Of a stretch of 32,000 nt of DNA, positions 2,173 through 30,375 are shown piece after piece; the first letter of the stretch is position 1, and each line of letters starts with the position of its first letter. The position numbers and the translations under genes were made by a program. Below the pieces are notes generated by a model. That model worked only from the letters and a program-made list of their open reading frames with translations, was not told where the DNA came from and searched no databases. Source of the stretch: Candidatus Saccharimonadota bacterium (GTDB lineage: Bacteria > Patescibacteriota > Gracilibacteria > UBA1369 > 2-02-FULL-48-14); the NCBI GenBank assembly GCA_041661045.1, contig JBAZVE010000001.1, positions 240,001 to 272,000 of the forward strand, read 5' to 3'.

Positions 2173-2247
2173 GCCTCCGTAGTTCAACGGATAGAACAAA
2201 TCCGTCCTAAGGATAAGATGGTGGTTCAATTCCGCCCGGAGGCACCA
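2173..2247 (+). tRNA. tRNA-Arg (anticodon CCU), CCA-3' encoded
   Basis: Manual cloverleaf. Acceptor GCCTCCG/CGGAGGC. D stem GTTC/GAAC. Anticodon stem with 4 Watson-Crick pairs plus one A.A. Loop GU-CCU-AA, anticodon at 2206-2208. T stem GGTGG/CCGCC with TTCAATT loop. Discriminator A then CCA (2245-2247). Confidence 0.85.
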
Positions 2248-2724: not shown

Positions 2725-2780
2725 AAGGCTATAGTGCAAGGCCGATTTTGTTGTGTCAAGGTAAGTTCGCTTGACGAGAC

Positions 2781-2809
2781 TTGACGGTGAGAGAGTGCTC
2801 ACCTATATT
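2781..2809 (+). promoter_or_regulatory. lexA promoter with an embedded inverted repeat (candidate operator)
   Basis: TTGACG (2781-2786), 17-nt spacer, TATATT (2804-2809). The spacer contains GGTGAG (2786-2791), N6, CTCACC (2798-2803). Confidence 0.45.
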
Positions 2810-2833
2810 GAGGGTACACTCACCTTTCACCCT

Positions 2834-3457
2834 ATGATGACCGCAAAACAAGAAGCCGTGCTCAAGTACATTGAGCAATACCAAATGAAACTCGGAAAAT
2901 CCCCCACACTGAGGGAGATGCGTGAACATTTTGGTGTCAGTAGTGACAATAGTGTGCTCAAACACATCAAAGCTTTGGTGGAGAAGGGGTTTTTAAAAAA
3001 GGATGACACTCCCCGAGGTATCGCGATGCTGGACTCCGTAAAAGAGCGCCTGGAAAGCGCCGGCAATATGTCCCGTATTCCTCTTTTGGGAACTATCCCT
3101 GCCGGAGGTCCTGTGCTCAGCGAAGAGCATGTGTTGGATTACTTTGAGGTTGGGAATGATTTGCTCAAACGGCCTCAGGGCTCCTTTGCCCTTCGTGTCA
3201 GCGGACTCAGCATGATCAATGCCGGAATTTTGGAGGGAGACTTTGTGATCGCCAACCAGGAACTCAAGCCCAAAGATGGAGATATTGTGATTGCACTTGT
3301 GGATGGAAATAATACGGTAAAAAGATACCGAAGCGGCACCGTGGAGGGCAAAGCCAAGGTTTGGCTCGAGGCAGATAATCCTGATTATTCCGATATTCAT
3401 CCTGATGAATATCTCGAAGTGCAAGGCGTGGTTACGGCCGTGATCCGCATGTACTGA
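2834..3457 (+). CDS. lexA: LexA repressor (S24 peptidase, SOS regulator)
   Basis: ORF 2771..3457, trimmed to ATGATG at 2834 (MMTAKQEAVLKYIEQYQ..). It has an N-terminal winged HTH, the cleavage-site region IPAGGPV, the catalytic Ser in GLSM and the catalytic Lys in VKRY. Confidence 0.9.
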   Translation: MMTAKQEAVLKYIEQYQMKLGKSPTLREMREHFGVSSDNSVLKHIKALVEKGFLKKDDTPRGIAMLDSVKERLESAGNMSRIPLLGTIPAGGPVLSEEHVLDYFEVGNDLLKRPQGSFALRVSGLSMINAGILEGDFVIANQELKPKDGDIVIALVDGNNTVKRYRSGTVEGKAKVWLEADNPDYSDIHPDEYLEVQGVVTAVIRMY

Positions 3458-4299: not shown

Positions 4300-5697
<1,398 letters not shown>

Positions 5698-5723
5698 CAG
5701 GAGCAAACTCGACTTTGTCGAGT

Positions 5724-6177
5724 AATCAAAAACCGACTTTTCTCTCGAGCTATCAGAAGCTATTTTCAGAGCTCTGAGCTCATTGATGAGGGAAAGGTCG
5801 GTCTTGTGAATGGTGACGAACTCCATTCTGTTTTTGTTTTTCATCTGCCTTACTTTGGTCGATTTTAGGGCCGGACCGGGGCTACTCTTGGCGTGGATAC
5901 TAGTCGTTGTGCCGAAGCAGGGAGCGAAGCGAGATCCACAGAGTGGAGGTGAGAATCTATTTCTCGCGGGTGATCTAGTCGAGACCACCAGCATAAAGCA
6001 GAGCCGTTTAAGGTAAAGTAACTTTTTGTTTTTATCTTAGTTTTGAAGGAGCGAGGCGAAAGGCTGTGTTTGTGTTTTTCAGCGTTTCATATCAATATAC
6101 GCAAAGGTCTTTCCGTTATCAAGTTTCTACGCTGGACGCGAACAAGAAATTGTTTCAAGATGGGCTGTTTTAATCTG
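5724..6177. repeat. Direct repeat R, copy A (454 bp, non-coding)
   Basis: Aligned by eye to 7036-7489 (offset 1312). Positions 5724-6159 are identical except for one C/T difference (6114 vs 7426). The last ~18 bp are partially conserved. Confidence 0.95.
5796..5989. ncRNA. Candidate structured RNA core inside repeat copy A (class and strand undetermined)
   Basis: A 10-bp long-range helix (5796-5806 with 5980-5989) encloses at least four well-formed hairpins. There is no credible ORF. See findings. Confidence 0.3.
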
Positions 6178-6994
6178 AACCGAATCCACCAATGATCTCT
6201 TCAGAAAGTTCTTGGATTCTCTCTGGATCCCTTAAAAAGGTGTGGACCCGCTCCCACTCCTCGCCCCTCCTTGCAAGCTTCGCAGACATTTCTTCGATCA
6301 CCCTTCGTTTTCCCGTTTCTACCATTCTCCTAGCAAAGGCTAACTCCATGTCAGGGTGAATTTCAATGAGGGCTTGCTGTGTCTCCTCAGTGAGCCCATT
6401 CAGGAGAGCCTCCATCCTTAGCTCCGTTCCACTCGGTATTCCGTTGGCCCCTTCCTCCTCTAATTCCGCCATCTTTCCATCAAAAAATTCCTGATCCTCT
6501 TCATCCAAACTGAGCACAAATTCAGGTACCGGTTTACACGAGCCGTTAGCCATCTCCTGCATCATTCTCCTTATGAAATTTCTCCGCAAGGCCCGCTCGA
6601 ATCTTAATGTTGCCTCCTCCTCCCCAATGGTTAAAACAAGCAGTAAAAAATAAACTCGCGCGCAAGCTATTGTGGGCACCGGATCACGGTAAAATCCATC
6701 CGGATACACTTTTCCAAAGGCCTCTGAAATCACTCTTGCTAATGCATTCAGCTCTTTCGACATTTCCTTGGCATTTGTGAAGAGGTGAGGCAGTTGATCC
6801 AGAACCACTTCCGGGGCCTCTTCGCTCTTTTCTAAGAGTTCCGGACTCACCTCCAAAAAACCCGCTATCGCATTGGGGTCTATTCTGTCTTTTGTTCCAA
6901 GTATTCCTCCATACGCCAATAGTATCGCCTTGAGATCTCTCAAGAGCTGCGCGTCGAGCCCTTTGCCGTCTTCCGGATGATCAATGTTTGCCAT
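6170..6994 (-). CDS. Hypothetical acidic, predicted all-helical protein (orphan, bracketed by the repeats)
   Basis: A 274-aa ORF starting at ATG with non-repetitive composition. It is the only ORF between the repeats. No family recognised by eye. Confidence 0.65.
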   Translation of the reverse strand: MANIDHPEDGKGLDAQLLRDLKAILLAYGGILGTKDRIDPNAIAGFLEVSPELLEKSEEAPEVVLDQLPHLFTNAKEMSKELNALARVISEAFGKVYPDGFYRDPVPTIACARVYFLLLVLTIGEEEATLRFERALRRNFIRRMMQEMANGSCKPVPEFVLSLDEEDQEFFDGKMAELEEEGANGIPSGTELRMEALLNGLTEETQQALIEIHPDMELAFARRMVETGKRRVIEEMSAKLARRGEEWERVHTFLRDPERIQELSEEIIGGFGSD

Positions 6995-7015
6995 TTAGTC
7001 TTAAAATAAGCTCGT

Positions 7016-7024
7016 ATTTTACCA
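7016..7024 (-). promoter_or_regulatory. Extended -10 element (TGgTAAAAT) upstream of the orphan gene
   Basis: The reverse strand reads TGGTAAAAT, 21 nt upstream of the ATG at 6994, in the unique 41 bp between the gene and repeat copy B. Confidence 0.35.
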
Positions 7025-7035
7025 CAATAGGCGTA

Positions 7036-7489
7036 AATCAAAAACCGACTTTTCTCTCGAGCTATCAGAAGCTATTTTCAGAGCTCTGAGCTCATTGATG
7101 AGGGAAAGGTCGGTCTTGTGAATGGTGACGAACTCCATTCTGTTTTTGTTTTTCATCTGCCTTACTTTGGTCGATTTTAGGGCCGGACCGGGGCTACTCT
7201 TGGCGTGGATACTAGTCGTTGTGCCGAAGCAGGGAGCGAAGCGAGATCCACAGAGTGGAGGTGAGAATCTATTTCTCGCGGGTGATCTAGTCGAGACCAC
7301 CAGCATAAAGCAGAGCCGTTTAAGGTAAAGTAACTTTTTGTTTTTATCTTAGTTTTGAAGGAGCGAGGCGAAAGGCTGTGTTTGTGTTTTTCAGCGTTTC
7401 ATATCAATATACGCAAAGGTCTTTCTGTTATCAAGTTTCTACGCTGGACGCGAACAAGAAATTGTTTCAAGGTCGGCTGTTTGAATCTG
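7036..7489. repeat. Direct repeat R, copy B (454 bp, non-coding)
   Basis: See copy A. It ends 58 nt upstream of the sdaAB start. Confidence 0.95.
7108..7301. ncRNA. Candidate structured RNA core inside repeat copy B
   Basis: Identical in sequence to 5796-5989 (offset 1312). Confidence 0.3.
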
Positions 7490-7507
7490 GTGGCTCTTTT
7501 GGGTTCC

Positions 7508-7536
7508 TTGCTTAAAAAATCCATTTGATTCATAAT
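7508..7536 (+). promoter_or_regulatory. Sigma70-like promoter of the sdaAB operon
   Basis: TTGCTT (7508-7513), 17-nt spacer, CATAAT (7531-7536). The ATG at 7547 lies 10 nt after the -10. No SD. Confidence 0.4.
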
Positions 7537-7546
7537 TCCATTACTT

Positions 7547-8230
7547 ATGAGCACCTTTTCCCTCTTCGACATCGCGGGTCCGATCATGGTGGGGCCTTCC
7601 AGCTCTCACACTGCTGGGGCAGCTAAGATTGGGCAGTTTGCGCGAGCCATTTTTGATGCAACCCCTACTAAAGTGCATTTTTTACTCCATGGATCTTTTG
7701 GAGAGGTTTATAAGGGGCATGCCACAGACCGAGCGCTCTTGGGTGGCGTGATGAAGTTTGCCCCCAACGATGCGCGCATTAAAACTTCTTTTGAAATTGC
7801 GGATGAGAAAGGATTGAAATATGAATTTGAACCTGGAGACTTGGGTGCCGGCCATCATCCCAATTCCGTGCGCATCACCTTGGAAAACGCGAATCGAAAG
7901 ACCGTGGTGATTGGCTCTTCCATTGGAGGGGGTAGCGTGGTGATCGATCAAATCAATGGATTTGATGTGCATTTGACCGGGAATAGCGCGGAACAGTTCT
8001 TCACCCTGGTGGTGGAGAATGAGAATAAACCCGGAATGCTTGCCAAGATCACGAGCTTTTTGGGGGAGAAAAATATTCGGATTGTGAATATGCAAAGTTG
8101 CTATTTAGCGTTTGAAAATAAAGTGCTCAGTGTTTTGAGTATTGAAAAATCCCTGGCGCTTGAAGAGCTTTTGGCGCTTGAAAAAGAAGAGGGGATTTTA
8201 TTTGCCCGCTCGCTCGAAAAACTTTCTTAA
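7547..8230 (+). CDS. sdaAB: L-serine dehydratase, iron-sulfur dependent, beta subunit (with C-terminal ACT-like domain)
   Basis: MSTFSLFDIAGPIMVGPSSSHTAGAAKIG.. is the conserved SDH beta N-terminus. It sits directly upstream of the alpha subunit. Confidence 0.9.
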   Translation: MSTFSLFDIAGPIMVGPSSSHTAGAAKIGQFARAIFDATPTKVHFLLHGSFGEVYKGHATDRALLGGVMKFAPNDARIKTSFEIADEKGLKYEFEPGDLGAGHHPNSVRITLENANRKTVVIGSSIGGGSVVIDQINGFDVHLTGNSAEQFFTLVVENENKPGMLAKITSFLGEKNIRIVNMQSCYLAFENKVLSVLSIEKSLALEELLALEKEEGILFARSLEKLS

Positions 8231-8241
8231 CCCTTTTTGAG

Positions 8242-9171
8242 ATGGCTGCTTCGTACATTTTCCACAACGCAAAAGAACTGCTTGAACGCTGTGAGGAACA
8301 CAAAATGTCGATTTGGGAGGTGATGCTCAATTACGAAAAACAATTTTCGAACCGATCGGAAGAAGAGATTCTGAAGATGCTTGGGGAACGATTGCAGGTT
8401 ATTTTTGATGGAATCGATGCGGCGATTGAAAATCCTGAACTCAGTAAGAGTGGAATGGTTGGAAATTCAACGCCTAAATTGGCCCGAGCCGTGAAGGATT
8501 TTAAAGAATGGAGTGATAAATTGCTGCTCAATGAATCGGCGGTGCGCGCCATGCTTGGAGCCGTAGCCACCGGAGAAAACAATGCGCGCATGGGTGTGAT
8601 TTTAGCCTTCCCTACTGCGGGTGCTGCGGGCGTGCTGCCGGGGGTGATTTATGGTGCCAAACACAAGCTCGGTCTGACTCATCAGCAAATGCTGGAAATG
8701 ATGCTCACCGCTTCTGCGATTGGCGTGGTGATTGCAAACACCGCCACGCTTTCGGGCGCGGCTGGCGGTTGCCAAGCTGAGGTCGGAAGTGCCACGGCCA
8801 TGGCCGCGGCGGCCCTCACCGAAGTGCGCGGCTACAGCCCGGAAACCAGCTTGCATGCTTCCTCACTCGCACTCAAAAATATGATTGGTCTGGCCTGCGA
8901 TCCTATTGGTGGACTCGTGGAAGTGCCTTGCATCAAACGGAATGGAATCGGTGCTGTTTTCAGCATGGCTGCCAGCGATATGGCCTGCATGGGCATCGAA
9001 AGTTTTGTGCCTTTTGATGAAGTGGTTCGCGCCATGCGTGAAGTGGGCGACCTCATGTCTCCCAAGATCCGCGAGACGGCTTTAGGCGGCCTCGCCATGA
9101 CGCCCACGGGTCAACGCGTTTCCGAAAAAATGGGCTTACTGAAGATTGGCGATAACCCTTGTGCGAAATGA
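8242..9171 (+). CDS. sdaAA: L-serine dehydratase, iron-sulfur dependent, alpha subunit
   Basis: Contains AGAAGVLPG, GGCQAEVGSA and GLACDPIGGLVEVPCIKRN motifs typical of SDH alpha. Confidence 0.9.
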   Translation: MAASYIFHNAKELLERCEEHKMSIWEVMLNYEKQFSNRSEEEILKMLGERLQVIFDGIDAAIENPELSKSGMVGNSTPKLARAVKDFKEWSDKLLLNESAVRAMLGAVATGENNARMGVILAFPTAGAAGVLPGVIYGAKHKLGLTHQQMLEMMLTASAIGVVIANTATLSGAAGGCQAEVGSATAMAAAALTEVRGYSPETSLHASSLALKNMIGLACDPIGGLVEVPCIKRNGIGAVFSMAASDMACMGIESFVPFDEVVRAMREVGDLMSPKIRETALGGLAMTPTGQRVSEKMGLLKIGDNPCAK

Positions 9172-12683: not shown

Positions 12684-12968
12684 ATGCCAACCGTTAAAAA
12701 TCATTCCACCGGTGCCACCGCGCAATGCGCAGTGGGCTCAAGTTTCCGTGAAGTCGCCCAAACTGCGGGTCTCGATATTGCCTTTGCTTGTGAGAGTGGG
12801 ATTTGTTCCACCTGCCTTATTCAAATCAAGAGTGGTGCAGAAAATTTGGGGCCGAAAACTGAACAAGAAGAATTCACTTTGGAGGTACGGGGTGTGGATG
12901 CCGGTGACATGACCACCCGACTCGGCTGCCAGTGCACCGTGAATGGAGATGTGGAATTTGAGCAGTAA
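12684..12968 (+). CDS. [2Fe-2S] ferredoxin (plant/adrenodoxin-like)
   Basis: CESGICSTC (C-x4-C-x2-C) plus a distal Cys in LGCQCTV. It starts 3 nt after the korB stop. Confidence 0.8.
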   Translation: MPTVKNHSTGATAQCAVGSSFREVAQTAGLDIAFACESGICSTCLIQIKSGAENLGPKTEQEEFTLEVRGVDAGDMTTRLGCQCTVNGDVEFEQ

Positions 12969-12996
12969 ACATAAGACCGTACATAACTACTTCCTT

Positions 12997-14556
12997 ATGA
13001 AGAAATCTTTCTCCATTGCCATACTGTTTTCTCTGCTCTTGGTCTCCTTTCCGGCTTTTGCCTTTGACGACATCGACACCTCCCCTAATAAAGATGCGAT
13101 CGAATATCTGGAAGAAGCTGGCGTTGTGGAGGGCTACAGCAATGATGAATTCCACCCCTATGCTGACATCAATCGAGCAGAGTTCACCAAAATCGTGATG
13201 GAGCAACTCTATCCCGGTGAGTCTAGCGGCGAAAACTGTTTCCTGGATGTCGGATACGATTGGTATGCGGATTATGTTTGTGAAGCCAGATCCCGGGGCG
13301 TTGTAGGCGGTTATCCTGATGGAAATTTCCATCCCGAGGCTGAAATCAATCTTGTGGAAGCTTTGAGTGTGGTGTTGAATGCCTATGATATTGAGGTGAC
13401 GAGTAGCCATCAAGAATGGTATGAGCAATACTATTGGATGGCATTCGAACTGAGCTTATTGGAAACCATCGACTCTGGAATGTTTGATTCGATTTCCCGT
13501 GGGGAGATGGCCCAGCTTGTTTATAATGTGGAAATGTATTTGACTGAAGATGAACCAAGTTATGCAAATGGGAAAGAATGTTTTTTGTATGACGATACGG
13601 AAAGTTATGTTTTTGATTATTGGGAACTTTTAGAAGTTCCTGGCGATGAGGCTATTGTTGTCGAAAGTGCTGGTTCGGACGCAGAATGTGCAGAGTATGC
13701 AGAGGCGCGTTACGGTGAGGATTATGAGATCTATGAAACCACTAATGAAGACTATGACATCACATGGCTTGGGGACGAAGAACTTGAAACAACGATTATG
13801 GCCATTGAAAAAGAAAATGTTGTGGTGCTTGTCCCTGAAGGATATGAAGAACTTGGCAAAGTTTATGTGGATGATTTGTTGTATTGCGATCCACTTCTAA
13901 GTGATTTTTTTGGTTTTGATTTTCCTGAAGATGAACTCGTAACTAAAATTTATATAAGCAGTGATGACTCCAATCAGAGTTCTAGCATTTTTGGGAAAAT
14001 TTTCTATCGAAAAAGCCAAGAGAATATGGATTTTGCTCTTGAGGATATTTTGACCAATAATCCGGAGGGATTCTTGTATAATTCAAGCTCAAGTTACTGT
14101 GCTAATAGTCATGAATTGGCTCATGCATTTGTTCAAGAAGCGCCAGTACCTGGCTGGTTTAATGAAGGGTTGGCAGAATTTACACAAAAATACAACCAAG
14201 GAGACATCAAGGATTCCATCTCCTGTGGTGAAAATGGTTACTACCGCGATGATGATTACTATCCCTACCCTAATCTTAGAGAAGATCTTGATTATCCCGC
14301 AGCAATGTGTCTGGTGGAAACATTGCTGAATGATCCTGAAAACAGCCATTTTGGAGATGTAATGGATGCGATTTATGCTTTCATTGAAGACCCTGAGCTT
14401 GAATCAGAATATCTGGATATTATCCCTGATGGGCAAGGTGTCTATACAACCACCGAGCTTATTTTCTCAAAAGTCTTGATAGAAGTGTTGGGTACTAGTG
14501 TCTCTGAAGATCTCATCAAATATGGGATCGACTTGGAAGACATGAATTTGTTGTGA
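12997..14556 (+). CDS. Secreted SLH-domain protein with C-terminal HExxH (peptidase MA-like) domain
   Basis: ORF 12943..14556, trimmed to MKKSFSIAILFSLLLVSFPAFA (signal peptide). It has two SLH-like repeats (FDDIDTSPNKDAIEYLEEAGVVEGYSNDEFHP..INRAEF; FLDVGYDWYADYVCEARSRGVVGGYPDGNFHP), an acidic linker, HELAH at 14110-14124 and WFNEGLAEF at 14155-14181. Confidence 0.8.
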   Translation: MKKSFSIAILFSLLLVSFPAFAFDDIDTSPNKDAIEYLEEAGVVEGYSNDEFHPYADINRAEFTKIVMEQLYPGESSGENCFLDVGYDWYADYVCEARSRGVVGGYPDGNFHPEAEINLVEALSVVLNAYDIEVTSSHQEWYEQYYWMAFELSLLETIDSGMFDSISRGEMAQLVYNVEMYLTEDEPSYANGKECFLYDDTESYVFDYWELLEVPGDEAIVVESAGSDAECAEYAEARYGEDYEIYETTNEDYDITWLGDEELETTIMAIEKENVVVLVPEGYEELGKVYVDDLLYCDPLLSDFFGFDFPEDELVTKIYISSDDSNQSSSIFGKIFYRKSQENMDFALEDILTNNPEGFLYNSSSSYCANSHELAHAFVQEAPVPGWFNEGLAEFTQKYNQGDIKDSISCGENGYYRDDDYYPYPNLREDLDYPAAMCLVETLLNDPENSHFGDVMDAIYAFIEDPELESEYLDIIPDGQGVYTTTELIFSKVLIEVLGTSVSEDLIKYGIDLEDMNLL

Positions 14557-15905: not shown

Positions 15906-17492
15906 ATGCCGCCTCTCACTCAAAACTGTCGACTGACCGGGAAACCCTTCACGGTGAGTGAATGGGAACAGGAGTTTTGTGCGCGGATGGGTGTGCCGGT
16001 GCCTTCGCTTTGTCCGGAGGAGCGGCAACGGAAAAGACTGGCGCACAGGAATGAACGGTCGCTATATAAACGGGGCTGTGATTTGTGTAAAAAAGTGATG
16101 ATCGCCATTTATCCGGAGTCTGCGCCCTTCCCCGTGTATTGCAGCGAGTGTTGGTGGGGCGATGGATGGGATCCCATGGATTACGGACAAGCGTTTGATT
16201 TTTCCAAACCTTTTTTTGATCAATTTAAGGAAGTGTATTTTCGGGTGCCGCGGGTGGGTGTGCTCAGTAGAAATGGAGAGAACAGCGAGTACACAAACTG
16301 TGAAGAGGGATCGAAAAATTGTTACCTCACCTTTGCCGGAGGATATTCGGAGGATTGCTCCTATTGTTATTTGAGCATCTCCTGCCGGGACTGTGTGGAC
16401 TGTTCACTCATCAACCATTCTGAGCTCTGTTACGAAGGCTTGGAACTCGACAATTGTTACCACTGTTTTTATCTCCAAAATTCACAAAACTGCAGTGATT
16501 GTGTGCTTGGGGTAGACCTCGTCTCCTGTAAAAATTGCTTTGGCTGCAAGGGGCTCCGGAATAAAGAGTTTTATATTTTCAATGAACCGTATTCAAAAGA
16601 GACTTATGAGGCAAAAATCGCCGAGTTGGATCCGCGTTCACCGGAAGTTCAGGCTCAGTTTTCTGCCCTTTGCTTGTCTATACCGAATAAATTTGCCCAC
16701 CTCAATAATTGTGAGAATTGTACGGGGGATTATATATTAAATAGTCAAAATTGTTTCAACTCTTTTGACATCAAAAATGGGAAGGATCTTATGTATGTCT
16801 ATTTAGGGCAAGATTTAAAAGATGCTTACGACTCTAATGTGATCTTCATCGGCACAGAGCTGATTTATAATTCTCACAGCATCTGCGTGAATTGTTTTCA
16901 AGTGCGTTGTTCCAACTTTTCCTGGAATATTTCTTTTTCGGATTACTGTGATTTCTGCCATTATTCAAAGAATTTGTTTGGGTGCGTTGCATTGAAGCGG
17001 AAAGAATATTGCATCCTCAATAAACAGTATTCAAAGGAGGAATACGAGGTGCTTGTGCCCCGCATCATCGAACACATGAAACAGACCGGCGAATGGGGTG
17101 AGTTCTTTCCTTATTCCGTTTTTGCCTACAATGAAACTTTGGCGCAGGAGTATTTTCCTCTGAGTAAAGAAGAGGCCGTGGAGCTTGGCTACCAATGGAA
17201 AGAACCCGTTGCTCAGGAGTTCGTGGCTGTCCCCGGTGCAAAGACCTGTGAGACCTGTAGAAAGGTGTTCAAATGCATTCAAAAAGAATTGGATTTTTAC
17301 AAGAAAATGAGCTTACCTGAACCGCAGAAATGTCATGATTGCCGACATAAGGCTCGAATGATGGGGCACAATCCACGAGAACTCTGGGCACGACAATGCA
17401 TGAAGTGTTCACGGGACATTCAAAGCAGCACTTCCCCAGATCGGGCGGAACCTGTGTACTGCGAGAAGTGCTATCTTGCTTTGATTTATTGA
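15906..17492 (+). CDS. Cys-rich double-zinc-ribbon / Cys-ladder family protein, paralog 1 of 8 (function unknown)
   Basis: 528 aa, ~42 Cys by my count. Alignable end to end with the seven other copies. The C-terminal module has four intact C-x2-C knuckles (CETC, CHDC, CMKC, CEKC). Confidence 0.9.
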   Translation: MPPLTQNCRLTGKPFTVSEWEQEFCARMGVPVPSLCPEERQRKRLAHRNERSLYKRGCDLCKKVMIAIYPESAPFPVYCSECWWGDGWDPMDYGQAFDFSKPFFDQFKEVYFRVPRVGVLSRNGENSEYTNCEEGSKNCYLTFAGGYSEDCSYCYLSISCRDCVDCSLINHSELCYEGLELDNCYHCFYLQNSQNCSDCVLGVDLVSCKNCFGCKGLRNKEFYIFNEPYSKETYEAKIAELDPRSPEVQAQFSALCLSIPNKFAHLNNCENCTGDYILNSQNCFNSFDIKNGKDLMYVYLGQDLKDAYDSNVIFIGTELIYNSHSICVNCFQVRCSNFSWNISFSDYCDFCHYSKNLFGCVALKRKEYCILNKQYSKEEYEVLVPRIIEHMKQTGEWGEFFPYSVFAYNETLAQEYFPLSKEEAVELGYQWKEPVAQEFVAVPGAKTCETCRKVFKCIQKELDFYKKMSLPEPQKCHDCRHKARMMGHNPRELWARQCMKCSRDIQSSTSPDRAEPVYCEKCYLALIY

Positions 17493-17517
17493 AATCCTCG
17501 GGCAGACCTGCTATTCT
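17489..17517 (+). promoter_or_regulatory. Sigma70-like promoter of paralog 2
   Basis: TTGAAA (17489-17494, overlapping the paralog 1 stop), 17-nt spacer, TATTCT (17512-17517) preceded by TGc. Confidence 0.4.
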
Positions 17518-17537
17518 GGGCCGTCTAACCCATTTGG

Positions 17538-19208
17538 ATGGCCGCGTGCAGGCAATGCAATCAAACCTTTGAAGTCGCTGCGGAGGACCTTGCTTTTTAT
17601 GACAGTATTTCGCCAAGTTTTGCTGGGAAAAAATATCCTATTCCGGCTCCAAAAATGTGTCCGCAATGTCGTCTTCAGCGGCGGATGGCGTTTAGGAATG
17701 AACGCAAGCTTTACACACGGAAAAGTGATTTGAGTGGACGGAGTATTATCAGCAATTATTCTCCTGATAAGCCTCATAAGATATATGACCAGGATGAATG
17801 GTGGTCTGACGCATGGGACCCGCTCGGTTATGGACGAGATTTTGATTTTAGTAGAACCTTTAATGAGCAGTTTAGGGGATTGGTGGAGACCGTGCCTCAG
17901 GTCTCTCTCGTCAATAAAAGTGGTGAGAACAGTTATTATACTAATTTTGCAATTTTTGTACGCAATTGTTATCTCGTATTTGGAGCGGGCAATGATGAGG
18001 ACTGTATGTATGGAAAGTACATTGTGGACAGCAAAGACTGCGTGGACAATTTGGCCATTTACTCCTGTGAACTCTGTTATGAGGGGGTTGCCTCCGAAGG
18101 CTGCTATCAATGCCGGTACTTTTTGAATTCTCGAAATTGTAGCGACTGTTTGATGGTGGATTCCTGCCTTTCATGTAAAAACTGTATCGCCTGCTTTGGC
18201 TTGGTCTCAAAGGAATATTATTATTTGAATACCTTTGTTGGGAAGGAGCGTTTTGAAGAGTTGAAAAAGGAATATGAATATTTAACGGCTAAAAAAGTGG
18301 CCTTTTTGCGGGAGCAGTTGGATGTGCTGAAGGGCCCTTTGCCCCACCGACAAGCGCAAACTTACGGGTGTGAGAATTGCACGGGAGACAATGTCTACAA
18401 CTCTAAAAACTGCCACCATGTTTTTGATGCCAAGGAATGCGAAGATTCTAAATATTTAAACTTTTCCCCAAAAACAAAGAATTCTTATGACATTATTTTT
18501 TGCGCTCCCGACGGAGTAGAGTTTTCTTACAATTTGTGCTCTGTGTTGAGTTTGAAAAACGCAATGAGTAATTATTTGGTTTGGAATGGCAGTGACATTT
18601 ATTATTCTCTCTCCTGCCACAGCTGCAATTCCATCTTTGGCTGCGTGGGCCTCCACAATAAACAGTACTGCATTTTTAATAAGCAGTATTCAAAAGAGGA
18701 GTATGAAATTTTGGTCGGCCGCATTATTGAACACATGCAAAAAACAGGAGAATGGGGAGAGTTTTTTGACTATTCCGTTTCGCCTTTTGGCTACAATGAG
18801 ACGGTGGCGGAGGAGTACTTTCCCCTGAATAAAGATCAAGTGCTGGCTTTGGATGCCAAGTGGCATGAAGAGTGTGACGAACAAATAGATGGAGCGCCTG
18901 TAGATGAAATTCCGGAGGATATTCGGTCTGTGGATGATGAAATTCTAAAAAAAGTACTCCACTGTGAAGTGAGCGGACGCCCTTATAAAATCACGCCCCA
19001 AGAGTTGAAATTTTATAGAAACATGAAATTGCCGTTACCACGGCGCCACCACGATGAACGGCATTTGAATCGCATCGCGCTACACAATCCCTACACCCTT
19101 TTTGACCGGTCTTGTGGAAAGTGTGGCAAAGCTATCCAGACTACTTACACTGAGCTTAGGGCAAAAGTGGTGTACTGCGAGGCCTGTTATTTGGCTAAGG
19201 TTTACTAA
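17538..19208 (+). CDS. Cys-rich family protein, paralog 2 of 8
   Basis: 556 aa. MAACRQCNQTFEV..CPQCRLQRRMAFRNERKLY; conserved block CIFNKQYSKEEYEILVGRIIEHMQKTGEWGEFF; C-terminus ..CGKCGKAIQTTY..VVYCEACYL. Confidence 0.9.
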   Translation: MAACRQCNQTFEVAAEDLAFYDSISPSFAGKKYPIPAPKMCPQCRLQRRMAFRNERKLYTRKSDLSGRSIISNYSPDKPHKIYDQDEWWSDAWDPLGYGRDFDFSRTFNEQFRGLVETVPQVSLVNKSGENSYYTNFAIFVRNCYLVFGAGNDEDCMYGKYIVDSKDCVDNLAIYSCELCYEGVASEGCYQCRYFLNSRNCSDCLMVDSCLSCKNCIACFGLVSKEYYYLNTFVGKERFEELKKEYEYLTAKKVAFLREQLDVLKGPLPHRQAQTYGCENCTGDNVYNSKNCHHVFDAKECEDSKYLNFSPKTKNSYDIIFCAPDGVEFSYNLCSVLSLKNAMSNYLVWNGSDIYYSLSCHSCNSIFGCVGLHNKQYCIFNKQYSKEEYEILVGRIIEHMQKTGEWGEFFDYSVSPFGYNETVAEEYFPLNKDQVLALDAKWHEECDEQIDGAPVDEIPEDIRSVDDEILKKVLHCEVSGRPYKITPQELKFYRNMKLPLPRRHHDERHLNRIALHNPYTLFDRSCGKCGKAIQTTYTELRAKVVYCEACYLAKVY

Positions 19209-19210
19209 TT

Positions 19211-19219
19211 TGCTAAAAT
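19211..19219 (+). promoter_or_regulatory. Extended -10 (TGcTAAAAT) of paralog 3 (probably leaderless)
   Basis: TG at 19211-19212 and TAAAAT at 19214-19219. The ATG at 19226 is 6 nt downstream. Confidence 0.35.
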
Positions 19220-19225
19220 CACTTC

Positions 19226-20848
19226 ATGCAGAGCTGTAAGCAGTGTCAAAACCCTTTTGAAGTCACCCCCACCGAGCGTGAATTCCTTAAAAAAGTGGCT
19301 CCAGTTATTGGCGAGCGGCGCTTTGAGATCCCGGAACCCTCCCTTTGCGCTGATTGTCGGCGACAAAGACGATATGCGATTCGAAACGACAGAATTCTTT
19401 ACAAACGGAAATGTGATAAGACCGGTAAGCCGATTGTTTCCGTACACCACGCTGATAAGCCCTTCCCCGTCTACGCCCTGGATGTGTGGTGGAGTGATGC
19501 GTACGATCCCCTGAGCTATGGTCGGGATTTCGACTTTTCCAGGACCTTTTTTGATCAGTTTCATGAGCTATCGACCGCGGTTCCTCGGGCGGCATGCATT
19601 GTTGTGAATTCCGAGAACTGTGACTACACGGCCTTTACTTTACAGTCTCGCAACTGTTTTCTTTCTTCTCGCTTGGCCGACACGGAAGATATTTATTACA
19701 CTTACTTGGCGCTCAAGAGTCGTTCTTGCTTTGACGGGTATAACTTAGCCGAGTGTGAACTTTGTTACGAGTGCATCGATTGCCGCAAATGCTATCGGTG
19801 TTTTTACACGGAAAATTCCAGAGGCTCTTTTAACCTCTTGTTTTGTGCCGATATGTCCGGCTGCAACGACTGTTTTGGCTGTGTGGGTTTGGTGCAAAAA
19901 AAATATCATTTCTTCAATCAGGCCCTTTCAAAAGAAGAGTATGAGAAACGAGTTCAGGAATGGTGGGATGGTTCTCATGAGGCGTTTGTGAAATGCCGGG
20001 CTGCTTTTGAAGCTTTTAGGAAAACCGTTCCGGTTCGTGCAACGGTGGTCCTCAACTCTGAGTATGTGCAAGGAAGTCATATTTTTGACAGTAAGAATGT
20101 GAACAATTCCTTTGATATCGTGGGCTGCGAAGATGTCCTTGATTGCACTCAAACTGAGTTTAGCAAAGACTGTATGGATACCGATTTTGCTTATGAAGTC
20201 GAGCTTCTGTACGAAGTGCTTTCAGGTGGGAAAAGCTCCAGAAGCCTTTTTTCTTTCGCTTTGGTTGGTGGCAGCAGTGAGACGATCTATTCCTGTTATT
20301 GCAGTAACGGTAACCAAAACCTTTTTGGGTGCATCGGTATGAAGGGCAGCAAGTATTGCATTTTCAATAAACAGTATTCAAAAGAGGAGTATGAGATTTT
20401 GGTGCCGCGCATCATTGAGCACATGCAAAAGACCGGAGAATGGGGTGAGTTTTTCCCGGTGGAGCATTCCACAATGGCCTACAACGAGTCTGTGGCACAA
20501 GAACGGTTCCCTCTCACGAAAGAAGAAGTCTTGCAGCGAGGGTGGAGTTGGTACGATGCTCCTGAAAGTGCGGCGGCCCAGGCTGAGGGAGACAATGTGC
20601 TCACCTGTGAAGTGAGTGGCCGAGCTTTCCGTTTGATCCCTCAGGAACTCAAATTCTACAAAGAGATGAACTTACCTTTGCCCACGAAGTGTCCAGATGA
20701 ACGCCATGCCGACCGTTTGGCAAAACGCACCCCTTATCGCTTACGCCCTACCCGGTGCCGGAAATGTTCCACGGAGATATTGACCGACATCCCCACGGAT
20801 GAAAAAATGATTTATTGTGAAGCTTGTTATTTAGCCGAAATCTACTGA
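19226..20848 (+). CDS. Cys-rich family protein, paralog 3 of 8
   Basis: 540 aa. MQSCKQCQNPFEV..CADCRRQRRYAIRNDRILY; CIFNKQYSKEEYEILVPRIIEHMQKTGEWGEFFP; ends CEACYLAEIY. Confidence 0.9.
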   Translation: MQSCKQCQNPFEVTPTEREFLKKVAPVIGERRFEIPEPSLCADCRRQRRYAIRNDRILYKRKCDKTGKPIVSVHHADKPFPVYALDVWWSDAYDPLSYGRDFDFSRTFFDQFHELSTAVPRAACIVVNSENCDYTAFTLQSRNCFLSSRLADTEDIYYTYLALKSRSCFDGYNLAECELCYECIDCRKCYRCFYTENSRGSFNLLFCADMSGCNDCFGCVGLVQKKYHFFNQALSKEEYEKRVQEWWDGSHEAFVKCRAAFEAFRKTVPVRATVVLNSEYVQGSHIFDSKNVNNSFDIVGCEDVLDCTQTEFSKDCMDTDFAYEVELLYEVLSGGKSSRSLFSFALVGGSSETIYSCYCSNGNQNLFGCIGMKGSKYCIFNKQYSKEEYEILVPRIIEHMQKTGEWGEFFPVEHSTMAYNESVAQERFPLTKEEVLQRGWSWYDAPESAAAQAEGDNVLTCEVSGRAFRLIPQELKFYKEMNLPLPTKCPDERHADRLAKRTPYRLRPTRCRKCSTEILTDIPTDEKMIYCEACYLAEIY

Positions 20849-20854
20849 TTTTTT

Positions 20855-22504
20855 ATGCCCGATATTCATCTCACCTGCCGCCTCACAGGAAAACCTTTTA
20901 CGGTTAGTGAGTGGGAGCAAGAACATCTTAAAAAATTTGATGCCCCTTTGCCGGATTTGTGCCCGGAGGAAAGACATCGCAAACGACTTTCCCATCGCAA
21001 TGAACGACGGCTTTATAAGAGAAATTGCTCCATGACGGGGGAGCCTGTAATTTCCGTGTTTTCGCCTGATAAAGATTTGCTCGTTTACCGCACGGAGGCA
21101 TGGAGAGGGGATGCCTGGGATGGACGCGATTATGGGATCGACTATGATTTCTCGAAACCTTTTTTTGAACAATTTGCGGCGTTGCAACGCATGGTGCCTC
21201 ACATGGCACTATTGAATGTGAATGGAGAGAATAGCGAGTATTGCAACATTACAACTGGGAATAAAAATTGTTATCTGGTCTTTGGTGGTGACTTTTGTGA
21301 AGACTGTAGATATTCGGTCTTTAGTATGCACTGCCGAGATGTCTCTGATGTGTATTGGGTGAATGGTTCGGAGCTCGTTTATGACACCTTAGACTCTGAG
21401 AATTGTTATAATATACGCTACTCTCAAAAGGCTTTTGGATGCAGGGATAGCAGTTTTTTGTTTGAGTGTCGCAATTGTGAAAACTGCTTCGGATGTGTGG
21501 GTTTGGTTGGAAAGAAATATCATATTTTCAACAAACCTTATCCCCCTGAAGAGTACAAAGAAAAGATCAAAGCCATGCGTTTGGACACCTGGAGTGGGGT
21601 AGAGAATATGCGAAAAGAATTTACTGAGTTCAAACTACAATTTCCTCATCGTTATGTGAAAATTATAAATAGTGAACACTGCACGGGTGATGACATTTCC
21701 GGAGCTAAGAACTGCGAGAATTGTTTTGGTATTTATGGGCCTGCGGAAGATTTGAAGGATATCTTTTTAGGGGGCTGGGGACTCAATGATTCCGCAAGCT
21801 CCGACCATATCGGTCATAAGGCTGAGCTTTTCTACGAAATGTTGGGCTCTATTGATGGTTCTCATTGTGCTTTCTGTACATTTTCTTGGAGTTCTCAAGA
21901 CACTTTTTATTGTAACTTTGTTCTCAACTCCCACGACCTCTTTGGCTGCAGTAATTTGAAGCGGGCGGAGTACTGCATCCTCAATAAGCAGTACAGCAAA
22001 GAAGATTATTTCGCTTTGCGGGGACGGATTGTGGAGCACATGAAATCTACCGGTGAATGGGGGCAATTTTTCCCTGCAAAAAACTCCCTTTTTGCTTACA
22101 ACGAGACAGTGGCTCAAGATTATTTCCCTCTCACAAAGGAGGCGGCTTTGGCTCAGGGATTGCGGTGGTTTGATGAAGAGAAACGGGCACTCACCCCCAA
22201 CGATTTACCTGACTCTATCCATGACATTACGGATGAAATTTTGAGCAAAACCCTGGTCTGTGAAAAAACTGGGCGACCTTACAAAATCATTCCAAGCGAG
22301 CTCAAGCTTTATCGTCAGATGGAAATCCCTATTCCACGGTATGCCCCCGAAACACGCAATGAAATCCGTATTGCTTCCCGAAATCCCATTCAAACATGGA
22401 CCAGGCAATGCGCAAAATGTGCGAAACCCATTGAAACCACTTATGCCCCCGATCGCCCCGAAAAAGTGTACTGTGAGGCCTGTTATTTAGCCGAAATCTA
22501 CTGA
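20855..22504 (+). CDS. Cys-rich family protein, paralog 4 of 8
   Basis: 549 aa. It starts 6 nt after paralog 3. The N-terminal CRLTGKPFTVSEWEQE is identical to paralog 1. It ends CEACYLAEIY. Confidence 0.9.
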   Translation: MPDIHLTCRLTGKPFTVSEWEQEHLKKFDAPLPDLCPEERHRKRLSHRNERRLYKRNCSMTGEPVISVFSPDKDLLVYRTEAWRGDAWDGRDYGIDYDFSKPFFEQFAALQRMVPHMALLNVNGENSEYCNITTGNKNCYLVFGGDFCEDCRYSVFSMHCRDVSDVYWVNGSELVYDTLDSENCYNIRYSQKAFGCRDSSFLFECRNCENCFGCVGLVGKKYHIFNKPYPPEEYKEKIKAMRLDTWSGVENMRKEFTEFKLQFPHRYVKIINSEHCTGDDISGAKNCENCFGIYGPAEDLKDIFLGGWGLNDSASSDHIGHKAELFYEMLGSIDGSHCAFCTFSWSSQDTFYCNFVLNSHDLFGCSNLKRAEYCILNKQYSKEDYFALRGRIVEHMKSTGEWGQFFPAKNSLFAYNETVAQDYFPLTKEAALAQGLRWFDEEKRALTPNDLPDSIHDITDEILSKTLVCEKTGRPYKIIPSELKLYRQMEIPIPRYAPETRNEIRIASRNPIQTWTRQCAKCAKPIETTYAPDRPEKVYCEACYLAEIY

Positions 22505-24105
22505 TGCAGAAAGTATGTAAAAAGTGCAGCGGGCCGTTTGAAATCACTCTTGAGGATGAAGTGTTTTTGAAGAAATTTGAAGTGCCTGCGCCTTCCCTTT
22601 GTCCCGAGTGTCGTAACCAAAGACGATGGACCTTTCGCAATGATCGGAACTTTTATAAGCGGGATTGTGACTTGTGCCATGCCGTCATGATTAGTATTTA
22701 TTCAAAAGAAAAACCTTTTCCTGTTTACTGCAAAGACTGCTATCTCAGTGACGCCTTCGATCCTTTGAAGTACGGCGTTGATTATGACCCCACTCGATCT
22801 TTTTTTGAACAATTTGGTGAGATGCGGGCTCGAGTTCCCCGCATGGCCAGTTACCAAACCCAAAGTGAGAATTCCGACTACACCGTGCACAGTGCTAAAA
22901 ACAGAAACTGCTACATGGGGAACTCTTTCCGTGAGTGCGAGGATGTTTTTTATTCTGATTTTGCTCAGTTTTCAAAGGACAGCATGGATCTTTATATGTG
23001 CAGTAATGTGGAACAATGCTACGACTGCACGGATAGCGACCAATGTTACCATTCCATTCACTTGGAGAATTGCATGAGCACGAATTTTTCTTGTCTTTGT
23101 TTTGATTGCCGCAGCAGCAGCAACTTGATTGCCTGCGTTGGGCTCCGAAGAAAAGAATTCATGGTCTTGAATAAACCTGTTAGTAAAGAGGAATTTGAAC
23201 AGACTTGGACCCGCTTCAATACAGATCCCACTTTCCGTAAAGATTTGGAGGAAAAATATAAGCAACTGCGCCTAGAAACTCCCGTAAAAAGTTTTTGGGA
23301 GAAGAATAGTGAGAATTGCAGTGGGAATTACATCGTGAATTCCAAGAATGCTCAGCACTGTTATAACAGCCGCAGCGTTGAGGATTCTCGTTATAATTTT
23401 GATGTGATTGATGTGAAAGATGCGATGGATATCACTCGCGCCGCGGGTGGTGAATTTTTGTACGAAGTTCATGCCATGATCGATCTTTTCTTCAGTAAAT
23501 TTTGTAACCTTTGCTACCAGTCGAGCGAGCTTGAATACTGTGACAACTGCCAGGCTAGCAAAAAGAGTTTTGGCTGCATGAGCCTTAAGGGGCACAGCAA
23601 CTGCATCCTCAACAAACACTATTCTCCGGAGGACTATGAAAAGCTCCGTGATCAAATAAAAGCGCAAATGTTGGCCGATTCCGAGTATGGCGAATTTTTT
23701 CCGTCTTCTCTCTCGGTTTTTGCCTACAATGAAAGTAAGGCTCGGGACTTTTTCCCGCTGACTCGTGAGCAAGCACTCGCTCAAGGTTACCAATGGCGTG
23801 ATCCGGAGGAAGCGGCCCGCCCCGTGCAGGGTGCTCAAGTCTCCGCAGACATTTTGGCGTGCGAAGGCTGTGGTAAAAATTATCGCATCATCCCTCAAGA
23901 GCTCGCGTTCTATCGCAAAATGGGGCTGCCCCTTCCTCACTTTTGTTTTGACTGTCGTCACCTCAAACGAGTGGCGCTTCAAAATCCTCAACGGCTCTAC
24001 TCGCGCGCGTGCGCAAAATGCTCGGCTCCCTTTGAAACCACCTACGCCCCCGACCGTCCCGAAAAAGTGTACTGCGAAAAGTGCTACTTGGAGACCGTGG
24101 GCTAG
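22504..24105 (+). CDS. Cys-rich family protein, paralog 5 of 8 (most divergent; all eight terminal knuckles intact)
   Basis: 533 aa. The start overlaps the paralog 4 stop (TGATG). Knuckles are CKKC, CPEC, CDLC, CKDC at the N-terminus and CEGC, CFDC, CAKC, CEKC at the C-terminus. Confidence 0.9.
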   Translation: MQKVCKKCSGPFEITLEDEVFLKKFEVPAPSLCPECRNQRRWTFRNDRNFYKRDCDLCHAVMISIYSKEKPFPVYCKDCYLSDAFDPLKYGVDYDPTRSFFEQFGEMRARVPRMASYQTQSENSDYTVHSAKNRNCYMGNSFRECEDVFYSDFAQFSKDSMDLYMCSNVEQCYDCTDSDQCYHSIHLENCMSTNFSCLCFDCRSSSNLIACVGLRRKEFMVLNKPVSKEEFEQTWTRFNTDPTFRKDLEEKYKQLRLETPVKSFWEKNSENCSGNYIVNSKNAQHCYNSRSVEDSRYNFDVIDVKDAMDITRAAGGEFLYEVHAMIDLFFSKFCNLCYQSSELEYCDNCQASKKSFGCMSLKGHSNCILNKHYSPEDYEKLRDQIKAQMLADSEYGEFFPSSLSVFAYNESKARDFFPLTREQALAQGYQWRDPEEAARPVQGAQVSADILACEGCGKNYRIIPQELAFYRKMGLPLPHFCFDCRHLKRVALQNPQRLYSRACAKCSAPFETTYAPDRPEKVYCEKCYLETVG

Positions 24106-24121
24106 AGGGGTGCCAGGATTT

Positions 24122-24940
24122 TCACTGCGCCACAAAGGCCGTGGCTCCGAGCCACGCCAGGTTAAAAATGGCCCGTTGAGTGCGTGCGTACACGGCGGAC
24201 TCAATGTGCATTCCCATCCGTTCATCCGGATTTAAGGACATTATGGCGACCTTGTTTTCGTAGATGGAAATTTGGTTTTCAAAATTGAATTCTTTTGGAT
24301 TCACAAAGAGAATTTCCACCAATTCCTGCGGATATTTTTTGGGGTAGAAGCGTTTTACGAATTGCCGTGCCTGCTCTGTGGAAGGCGAAAGTAAGCGCAC
24401 CTTGATGTGATTTTTGACGAGTTTCTCCGTATAAGTGGGGAGATAATCGGGGAGGAGCTCACCCAGGGCCTCCAGGTTGGTGTAACCCAACACCTCCGAT
24501 TTTGCCTCGAGCGTTTGCTCAAAAATGGTCTTGATACCCTCCAGTCCTTCGTACGAGCGGATGATGGGCTTAAAAGCCAGCGCATTGGTGATGGAGAGCA
24601 GCTCGGGAAGGAGCTTTTTTGCGCTTTGATACTGCGTTTCCATTTGGTTCACCAAGACTTGGGGGGGCTCCGCTACAAAAAACTTCACTTTGCCCTTAAA
24701 ATTGGCGGTCACAAGGCCGTGTTTTCGTAGGTTTTCCAAGACATAATAACAGTTTACGCGCGGGATTTTTGCTTGGCTCGCGATGGTGCTTGCAAAAGAA
24801 CCCCCAAGCTCCAAAACCGTGAGGTAAACCTGAGCTTCCTCCTCCGAAAGGCCGAATTCTTGGAGTTTTTCCTGCAGCAATTGGCTTTGTTGTAAAATAA
24901 TTTCTACAACTAATCTAACCTGTAATTTACTATTTTTCAA
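24122..24940 (-). CDS. TrmB-family transcriptional regulator (winged HTH plus C-terminal domain)
   Basis: FGLSEEEAQVYLTVLELGGSFASTIASQAKIPRVNCYYVLENLRKHGLV is the typical TrmB N-terminal HTH. Convergent with paralog 5 (16-nt gap). Confidence 0.8.
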   Translation of the reverse strand: MKNSKLQVRLVVEIILQQSQLLQEKLQEFGLSEEEAQVYLTVLELGGSFASTIASQAKIPRVNCYYVLENLRKHGLVTANFKGKVKFFVAEPPQVLVNQMETQYQSAKKLLPELLSITNALAFKPIIRSYEGLEGIKTIFEQTLEAKSEVLGYTNLEALGELLPDYLPTYTEKLVKNHIKVRLLSPSTEQARQFVKRFYPKKYPQELVEILFVNPKEFNFENQISIYENKVAIMSLNPDERMGMHIESAVYARTQRAIFNLAWLGATAFVAQ

Positions 24941-24995
24941 GCTAAAATTATTATTGAACTTACAGTTGTGATAGGATTGAAGCTAATCAAAATTT

Positions 24996-25328
24996 ATGGC
25001 AAACATCGACGACTTTCAAAAATTGGACATTCGCGTGGGCCGCGTGCTGGCCGCCGAACCCTTCCCCGAGGCACGCAAGCCTGCCTACAAGCTCACCATC
25101 GATTTCGGCGGCGAAGTGGGCACAAAAAAATCTTCCGTCCAAATCACCAAGCACTATGCCCGGGAAGAACTCGTGGGACGACTGGTGCTCGGCGTGGTCA
25201 ATTTTCCTCCTCGCCAAATCGGCCCCTTTGTTTCCGAAGTGCTCACCCTGGGCCTCCCGGACAGCGATGGCGAAGTGGTCTTGACTCAACCTGAACGGGA
25301 TGTACCCGTGGGTGGACGATTGTTTTAA
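24996..25328 (+). CDS. csaA: tRNA-binding domain protein CsaA
   Basis: MANIDDFQKLDIRVGRVLAAEPFPEARKPAYKLTIDFGGEVGTKKSSVQIT..VVNFPPRQIGPFVSEVL closely resembles B. subtilis CsaA / Trbp111-type OB-fold proteins. Confidence 0.85.
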   Translation: MANIDDFQKLDIRVGRVLAAEPFPEARKPAYKLTIDFGGEVGTKKSSVQITKHYAREELVGRLVLGVVNFPPRQIGPFVSEVLTLGLPDSDGEVVLTQPERDVPVGGRLF

Positions 25329-25329
25329 T

Positions 25330-26106
25330 ATGACACCCGATACCCCTATCGCCATTATTGGACTTGGACATCTTGGCAGCAGTATTGCAAAACGGCTCAT
25401 TAGAAATGGACACAAGAAACTTGTTGCTACTCGACGAAATGAAAACGAACTCCAAGCACCTAAAGATCTGAGTCCACATTTAGTCCTGACGACCGACAAT
25501 GAAATGGCCGTGAAAAATGCTGCCGTGATTATATTGGCGACTAAAGAAGCAAGCTTTGAGGACTTTGCAGCTGCCATTAAAGCCGGCCGACAAGGGAAGC
25601 TCTTAATCAGTCTTGGTCCGACCTTCAAACTGAACAAGCTCGATGAACTATTTGGTGGGCACAATGTTCGCTTGATCACTCCGGTAGACGCTAGAAATGA
25701 TGTTATTTGTTACTCAACGGATTCTTTTTGTTCTGATGAAGACGAAAAAGTTCTCCACTATATTTTTGGAGAGTGTATTCAAAAAGTCCCCGAAGAAGAG
25801 ATGCCTCTCGCAACGGCTTTCGTGCTTTTCAGAGGAGTACTCAATTCATTCCTCGATCCCTTCATTCGGGTTGCCGCTCAAGAGGGACTTGATGCACAAA
25901 GCTCACAGAAAATAATGGGGGAAATGCTTATTTCTTGTGGTGAGGAGCTTAGGGATGGAATCTCCTCTGAGAAGCGCCTTGAAAATGCGAGTGGTGGCTT
26001 TAATGAAAAGAGCTTCACCATGCGGCTTTACAAAGAGCTGGAGCCAGCTCAAGTGCTTTTAAAAGACCTGTTTGAGAAGGTTTGTAAACAATTTAAGAAT
26101 CTATGA
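25330..26106 (+). CDS. Pyrroline-5-carboxylate reductase-like NAD(P)-dependent oxidoreductase
   Basis: ORF 25300..26106, trimmed to ATG 25330, 1 nt after the csaA stop. It has the Rossmann motif IAIIGLGHLGSSIAKRL and a ProC-like length and C-terminal helical domain. Assignment to the ProC family is by resemblance only. Confidence 0.7.
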   Translation: MTPDTPIAIIGLGHLGSSIAKRLIRNGHKKLVATRRNENELQAPKDLSPHLVLTTDNEMAVKNAAVIILATKEASFEDFAAAIKAGRQGKLLISLGPTFKLNKLDELFGGHNVRLITPVDARNDVICYSTDSFCSDEDEKVLHYIFGECIQKVPEEEMPLATAFVLFRGVLNSFLDPFIRVAAQEGLDAQSSQKIMGEMLISCGEELRDGISSEKRLENASGGFNEKSFTMRLYKELEPAQVLLKDLFEKVCKQFKNL

Positions 26107-30327: not shown

Positions 30328-30375
30328 GGTTGATGTGGCTATCCGCCTTGTTGTCAAAATTATTTTGACAATATT

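Follow-up and report, generated by a model that had tools for sequence, protein, structure and literature searches.

The DNA analyzed here, referred to as the window, is a stretch of 32,000 nucleotides from contig JBAZVE010000001.1 (assembly GCA_041661045.1), in which two near-identical direct repeats of 454 bp, termed R (copies A and B), are located between the enolase gene eno and the L-serine dehydratase genes sdaAB and bracket a single gene for an orphan protein, termed X (Table 1). A direct comparison of both copies reproduced the coordinates, the 1312-bp offset, the single C/T difference and the decay at one end that had been described in an initial annotation of this DNA. The first 436 nt are alike except for C 6114 vs. 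T 7426, 3–5 mismatches are observed over the final ~18–24 nt, and no similarity is left beyond this point. The resulting whole-module identity is 98.7% (the range given for the window pair being 98.7–99.8%), which is far above chance expectation, and no third copy of R was found in the 32-kb window. The list of open reading frames (ORFs) also confirmed that X is the sole long ORF between the copies and that its TAA stop codon lies inside the end of copy A. The same annotation had described X as simply oriented against its neighbors, a view which had to be revised, as X runs the same way as the two RNA genes described below. Both junctions between X and the repeat are confirmed by an independent raw-read assembly, because X is bounded on either side by exactly 30 nt of the shared repeat in Logan unitig L001 (SRR18595301, 936 bp); this unitig does not prove the linear order R-X-R.

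On the left side of the locus, eno of the window is 72–86% identical to the eno genes found upstream of R in relatives. The small hairpin noticed earlier directly after its stop codon is indeed present, and relatives carry a covarying counterpart (variants CTCGCC/GGCGAG, CTTGCC/GGCAAG and CTGCAC-TTCG-GTGCAG, among them one with a UUCG tetraloop when read on the plus strand), so that it is not peculiar to this genome; it is probably a part of the eno mRNA 3' end. On the right side, a candidate sdaAB promoter lies outside the repeat, and the pattern TTGCnn-17-CATAAT is kept in relatives between the sdaAB-proximal R copy and sdaB. This candidate promoter ends only ~10 nt ahead of the start codon, which suggests a very short leader of the sdaAB transcript. 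The closest relatives of SdaB come from metagenome-assembled genomes of Peribacteria/Peregrinibacteria, and the sequence of X matches without any difference an NCBI protein of a metagenome-assembled genome labeled 'Candidatus Gracilibacteria bacterium'. Genetic code 25, which would go with the Gracilibacteria label, was considered and dropped, as table 11 gives intact genes and TGA serves as the stop codon of paralogous genes.

Table 1. Features of the window (positions counted from its first nucleotide)
Feature	Position	Strand	Remarks
Repeat copy A, complete putative ncRNA gene module	5724–6177		profile match 5721–6180
Repeat copy B, second complete putative ncRNA gene module	7036–7489		profile match 7036–7491
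Predicted ncRNA transcript, copy A	5726–6087	-	~360 nt, ends approximate; from promoter and terminator positions
Predicted ncRNA transcript, copy B	7038–7399	-	terminator hairpin 7045–7116, U-tract 7035–7044
Long terminator hairpin, copy A	5733–5804	-	minus-strand U-tract 5723–5732
Multi-helix RNA core, copy A	5829–6002	-	covariance model R1: 196 bits, E 5e-50
Multi-helix RNA core, copy B	7141–7314	-	covariance model R1: 196 bits
Sigma-70-type promoter of RNA copy A, TTGATA-17-TATATT	6094–6122	-	promoter scan, 10/12 matches
Sigma-70-type promoter of RNA copy B	7406–7434	-	upstream conserved blocks TGGAC, AAATTGTTTCA and AATCTG reach 7489
X, acidic, predicted all-helical orphan protein, 274 aa	6170–6994	-	same orientation as RNA genes
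Possible extended -10 element for X, TGGTAAAAT	7016–7024	-	putative, read from the sequence
eno (enolase)	4435–5697	+	ORF/translation; convergent with RNA gene copy A
Small hairpin CTCGAC-ttt-GTCGAG directly after eno stop	5708–5722	+	covaries in relatives
Candidate sdaAB promoter TTGCTT-17-CATAAT	7508–7536	+	outside repeat; putative
sdaAB, L-serine dehydratase	7547–9171	+	beta subunit 7547–8230, alpha subunit 8242–9171; divergent from RNA copy B
tRNA-Arg(CCT)	2173–2247		
LexA gene	2771–3457		
SLH-domain protein	12943–14556		

The R module as a predicted structured RNA gene

The initial annotation had offered two origins for the repeats, namely the integration of a circle into a chromosomal R, or a tandem duplication. 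Judging from its conserved parts, R is not a target-site copy but appears to be a complete and self-contained gene for a structured non-coding RNA (ncRNA) of ~360 nt (predicted), read on the minus strand. The 5' part of the module contains ~90 bp of conserved upstream sequence ahead of a sigma-70-type promoter (TTGATA-17-TATATT, called by the promoter scan in both copies), whose hexamers are kept and whose 17-nt spacer is variable among the 32 R copies compared; the single mismatch between the window copies (6114) falls within this spacer in copy A. An invariant A5CA5 tract (reading T5GT5 on the plus strand) borders the RNA core on either side (5829–5841 and 5998–6010 in copy A, with matching positions in copy B), and after the terminator hairpin (helix 8 of the consensus structure; 15 pairs, 9 of them compensatory) the minus strand continues with an invariant CGGTTTTT. 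The AAAACAAAAACAAA motif, which is retained even in distant homologues, fits a putative single-stranded binding site of the (ARN)n type.

The structure itself is strongly conserved. The minus-strand consensus of the close family comprises 54 pairs in eight helices, and 37 of these 54 are compensatory (vs. 19 in shuffles). Pairing is observed in 95.9% of cells, as compared to 86.8% in shuffles and 36–47% in controls with slid partners, and this close-family value was reached by none of the 500 shuffles. At the level of the phylum, 44 distinct sequences, in an alignment fitted to the covariance model, are 92.5% paired (vs. 70.9% in shuffles), with compensatory changes in 31 of 38 pairs. The minus strand is taken to be the RNA strand because G-U pairs outnumber A-C pairs by 163 to 24 when the conserved pairs are read on it; the consensus folding energy likewise amounts to -45.8 kcal/mol (covariation -8.2) on the minus strand vs. 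-34.3 kcal/mol (covariation -3.6) on the plus strand.

These values bear directly on an alternative in which R is a plus-strand element, either a cis-regulatory leader of sdaAB (riboswitch or attenuator) or a 3' untranslated region of eno, so that its duplication would have produced tandem regulators. R does occupy the eno-sdaAB spacer, its fold is more pronounced on the plus strand (z = -3.2 vs. -1.8 on the minus strand), and two small plus-strand hairpins are each followed by a terminator-like U5GU5 tract; the ratio of G-U to A-C pairs, the consensus energy and the covariation nevertheless all favor the minus strand, on which a conserved promoter and terminator also frame the structure. Moreover, the candidate sdaAB promoter lies downstream of R, and one distant lineage has a further gene between the RNA and sdaB. 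Altogether, a plus-strand role of this kind seems highly improbable.

With respect to known RNAs, a search of both strands of the window with the Rfam 15 covariance models returned nothing at gathering score (at E ≤ 10 only the bantam microRNA, with a chance-level E of ~8), seven homologue loci gave no Rfam match at E ≤ 1, and ARAGORN detected no transfer-messenger RNA (tmRNA) in the window. Known families (tmRNA, RNase P RNA, signal recognition particle (SRP) RNA, 6S RNA and riboswitches) were rejected on these grounds, and by-eye likenesses to tmRNA 5' ends, to 4.5S/SRP RNA (GGUCCGG...AAGGCAGAUGA) and to RNase P motifs were dropped as having no model backing. A small protein encoded within R was considered as well (a 68-aa ORF on the plus strand and a 95-aa ORF on the minus strand) and rejected, as these frames are not conserved and have no Pfam match; ORFs within R vary in frame and extent between species, and the core alignment shows single-base indels. 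Our literature searches found no description of this RNA, and the family is previously undescribed.

Distribution, copy number and cargo of R

Related loci were fetched using SdaB as a query. R aligns at 72–82% identity between eno and sdaAB in 18 GTDB species, and its homologues occupy this position in ~30 related Peribacteria, with one locus per genome. The invariant-core pattern was found in 14 metagenome stretches, all of them (14/14) in the eno-R-sdaAB context and one per contig (also on contigs as long as 0.85 to 1.25 Mb), and a profile search located full-length R modules at the eno-sdaAB locus only. Being conserved and confined to one locus, R is neither a dispersed repeat nor a recombination scar; a dispersed mobile element (miniature inverted-repeat transposable element, insertion sequence or repetitive extragenic palindrome-like) was accordingly rejected, given one locus per contig and always beside sdaAB.

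A more distant search, using a covariance model of the 174-nt RNA core, yielded full-length core matches upstream of sdaB, on the opposite strand, at ~30 distant Peregrinibacteria loci, where SdaB is only ~50–58% identical. In the majority of the distant homologues examined, a promoter-like TTGnnn-17-TAnnnT is present upstream of the core on the RNA strand, and the core is followed by an A-rich motif and a hairpin (often GC-rich) with a T-run; at the majority of these distant loci the RNA is convergent with an unannotated ~350-aa gene in place of eno. R adjoins sdaAB divergently throughout Peregrinibacteria, with the eno-sdaAB position characterizing this Peribacteria family.

The number of copies varies between species. 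A single R is present in the sister species L002 as well as in L094, L010, L011 and L016, and six loci contain two full-length copies just 27–48 bp apart with no cargo between them (L006, L013, L019, L088/L084, L089; in L006, the duplication took in ~20 nt of the left flank). The R-cargo-R arrangement is observed in the window (X), in L003 (an S-adenosylmethionine-dependent methyltransferase) and in L028 (HATPase and DUF4325 proteins), and the cargo is on the RNA strand in three out of three cases. In other species, GNAT, PemK/MazF toxin or orphan genes are found between eno and the RNA gene, and insertions between the sdaAB-proximal RNA gene and sdaAB were never seen in the loci compared. Within-genome identity of the copies is 81–87% in seven other two-copy species vs. 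98.7–99.8% here, and the copy-1 and copy-2 sequences form separate clades, each common to several species. The presence of such diverged copies in seven other species shows that the two-copy architecture, including its variable slot, is old. This comparison of related loci speaks both for and against one of the histories proposed in the initial annotation, namely integration of a circle carrying R and X: single-R species do exist, whereas two diverged copies with either no cargo or another one are common and come close to the ancient, fixed architecture which that annotation had itself set against a recent event.

A related two-gene cassette was also noticed at this hot spot in two species (L028, 413–1662, and L018, 3775–4967), in different slots and orientations. 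Its first gene encodes, in both cases, an ATPase-type protein (with a HATPase domain in L028) matching the N-terminal part of the DrmA (DISARM) model, and the second one a small protein, which is DUF4325/STAS-like in L028 and has no Pfam or PADLOC match in L018.

X itself is a rare accessory gene. In an exhaustive HMMER search of 1.8 billion representative proteins, no more than two remote homologues of X were recovered, and their number did not increase in a profile search. Pfam gave only a sub-threshold match to NleF (E 0.0026), nothing significant was found for X in PADLOC, PHROGs or a PDB profile search, and the AlphaFold model is all-helical and of low confidence (predicted local distance difference test score of 44). 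The GC content of X is host-like, with no compositional anomaly. The gene has no terminator of its own ahead of copy A, and its possible -10 element falls within the 41 unique nucleotides that separate the start of X from copy B. One of the remote homologues (P0003) is encoded directly downstream of a gene for a XerC/XerD-type tyrosine recombinase (Logan contig, L098 5043–6735).

Origin of the R-X-R arrangement

Taken as a whole, the reading which we favor, and consider probable, is that of a duplicated gene for a new ncRNA with an adjoining slot that holds the accessory gene X, and with copies that were recently homogenized. R would have been duplicated in tandem long ago, or repeatedly, and the space 3' of each copy's terminator would tolerate insertions, the accessory genes collected there differing from species to species. 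X occupies this slot in the present genome; it probably uses its own -10 element and would end at the terminator of copy A. Recent homogenization of both RNA-gene copies would have occurred most likely via RecA-type gene conversion between paralogues or, by an alternative route, via collapse to one chimeric copy and subsequent re-duplication. Recombination between the direct repeats could remove X and leave one R behind, the state seen in the sister species L002, and the earlier suggestion that the 1312-bp unit can be excised or amplified by homologous recombination is supported in principle. The RNA, presumably expressed from its own promoter, might act in trans or bind a protein (this is a guess) and might be co-regulated with sdaAB via a shared divergent control region, as suggested by the fixed divergent arrangement of the two.

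The recent character of the last step, which the initial annotation had deduced from the near-identity of the copies as recombination or gene conversion, is supported by the comparison with relatives: the paralogues are older than the species and yet near-identical within one genome, as expected of gene conversion. The 99.8% identity points to recent gene conversion or re-duplication, and the graded decay of identity at one end is more in line with the margin of a conversion tract than with a newly formed duplication junction. In addition, R of the window mixes sites diagnostic of both paralogue types (aaa.abbbbaabbbbbaaaaaaab) and trees of its segments conflict, a part of this signal coming from one covarying helix; such a mosaic would fit recombination among paralogues.

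The same observations can be read in terms of a recent Campbell-type integration or cassette exchange, in which R and X came from another strain, by excision or uptake, as a non-replicating circle or a linear fragment that recombined with the one R already present. The five single-R species mentioned above resemble empty sites, near-identical copies are what a recent event predicts, and R together with eno and sdaAB would give long homology arms across species; the R-cargo-R arrangement recurs with three different cargoes, and the mixture of both paralogue types looks as if recombination had joined two types of R. However, identity fades over the last ~20 nt with no sharp end, and many relatives hold two old, diverged copies without cargo, which the integration model does not produce. 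Neither is there a donor: X and R have no homologues in the phage, plasmid and viral collections searched, so that nothing points to an R+X circle of the kind initially proposed, and only the two remote homologues of X are available elsewhere. In agreement with the earlier observation of no integrase or transposase nearby, neither these nor other mobile-element domains were detected in the 10 large flanking ORFs of the window that were scanned, and the composition of X is normal. The locus can be explained without a Campbell-type integration, which we consider unlikely.

The duplication–homogenization reading, for its part, has to face several opposing points. Part of the mosaic signal comes from both strands of a single helix and could thus be due to compensatory evolution instead of recombination. 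A single-copy ancestor and a fresh duplication together with X would be equally parsimonious, given the single R of the sister species L002, and a comparison of the tandem-copy spacers of relatives with the flanks of X gave no clear similarity, hence no direct trace of an insertion. The fitting of the phylum-wide alignment to the covariance model inflates its pairing figures, and the RNA ends are predictions only. Finally, R-X-R and the combination of one R with a 1312-bp circle of R+X look alike in a short-read assembly.

The last point leads to another explanation, an assembly artifact or mixed population, with a single chromosomal R and a separate or alternative R+X form, or with a mis-joined repeat. 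With 454 bp, the repeat is longer than a typical read, and it is exactly here that the Logan unitig ends, but the same independent assembly contains both X-R junctions, and each copy in the window retains a private single-nucleotide difference and private ends. A published study of complete Peribacteria genomes reported an approximately insert-sized direct repeat, through which the assembly path was of necessity selected manually (PMC4736985); according to this paper, one direct repeat of roughly read-insert size flanks ~3 kb in all five complete Ca. Peribacter riflensis genomes, and this could be the same R-cargo-R locus. Nevertheless, R-cargo-R and R-R arrangements are also seen in relatives with diverged, unambiguously assembled copies, and a 1.3-kb circle without a replication gene is unlikely to persist. 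We therefore regard an artifact as very unlikely.

Wider context and comparison with known systems

Elsewhere in the window (15906–32000), a tandem array of at least 10 paralogous cysteine-rich genes (~530–556 aa) is observed, with blocks of 60–80% nucleotide identity; its members include 15906–17492, 17538–19208, 19226–20848, 20855–22504, 22504–24105, 26103–27764 and 27761–29410, and two members searched against Pfam gave no match.

Large, intricately folded and strongly covarying bacterial RNAs are rare, and the characterized ones include ribozymes and RNA-protein machines. The R RNA is conserved across a candidate phylum of uncultured small-genome bacteria, and its fixed link to L-serine dehydratase provides a testable hypothesis. 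At the same locus, accessory genes (toxins, a defense-like ATPase pair, a methyltransferase, orphans) turn over at one site with no visible mobile-element machinery, the direct repeats at this site being provided by the duplicated RNA gene. As the length of the R repeat is close to that of a sequencing insert, it is also a likely assembly trap in these genomes. A more far-reaching possibility, which we view as speculative and rather doubtful, combines both aspects: a new, large and structured RNA of the whole phylum with a specific role, biochemical or regulatory, that is linked to the serine dehydratase operon, and whose duplicated gene would also be the homology anchor of a recombinase-free cassette exchange. 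If true, strains that take up DNA would acquire, lose and exchange R-cargo-R units through homologous recombination; for bacteria of the Candidate Phyla Radiation (CPR), which are apparently poor in mobile elements, this would be a plausible route to trade accessory and defense genes.

Several known systems share some (but not all) of these features. As in integron cassettes, single promoter-poor genes in one orientation are placed between repeated structured elements; unlike them, the R locus has no integron integrase or attC features and contains at most two repeats. An integron cassette array was rejected, with no recombinase in the ORFs scanned and a repeat ~4 times the length of attC (attC being an imperfect palindrome of well under 150 bp, unlike R). 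R also resembles tRNA/tmRNA genomic islands and chromosomal hot spots of horizontal transfer flanked by core genes, as variable accessory, toxin and defense-like genes collect beside a conserved RNA gene and, as in such islands, the cargo is bounded by direct repeats derived from this gene. In contrast to these islands, the R locus is without an integrase, the cargo is just one or two genes, and the repeat spans all 454 bp of the gene, not just a short 3' segment.

Paired small RNA genes and rRNA operons under concerted evolution are tandem RNA genes kept similar by gene conversion. R resembles them in that its unit is a whole gene with a promoter and terminator, which has paralogues in many relatives, and in that orthologues of different species are much less similar to each other than the two copies of this genome. 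It differs from them in belonging to a new family, in copies that bracket a slot with variable protein-coding cargo, and in being homogenized in one of eight two-copy species. With OLE, GOLLD, ROOL, HEARO and raiA, which are large structured bacterial ncRNAs discovered through comparative genomics and have no assigned function, R shares a length of several hundred nucleotides, a multi-helix junction, invariant single-stranded blocks, strong covariation and confinement to one lineage; unlike these RNAs, all of which are in Rfam, R matches no Rfam model and is found at a fixed locus, divergent from sdaAB, in Peregrinibacteria of the CPR only.

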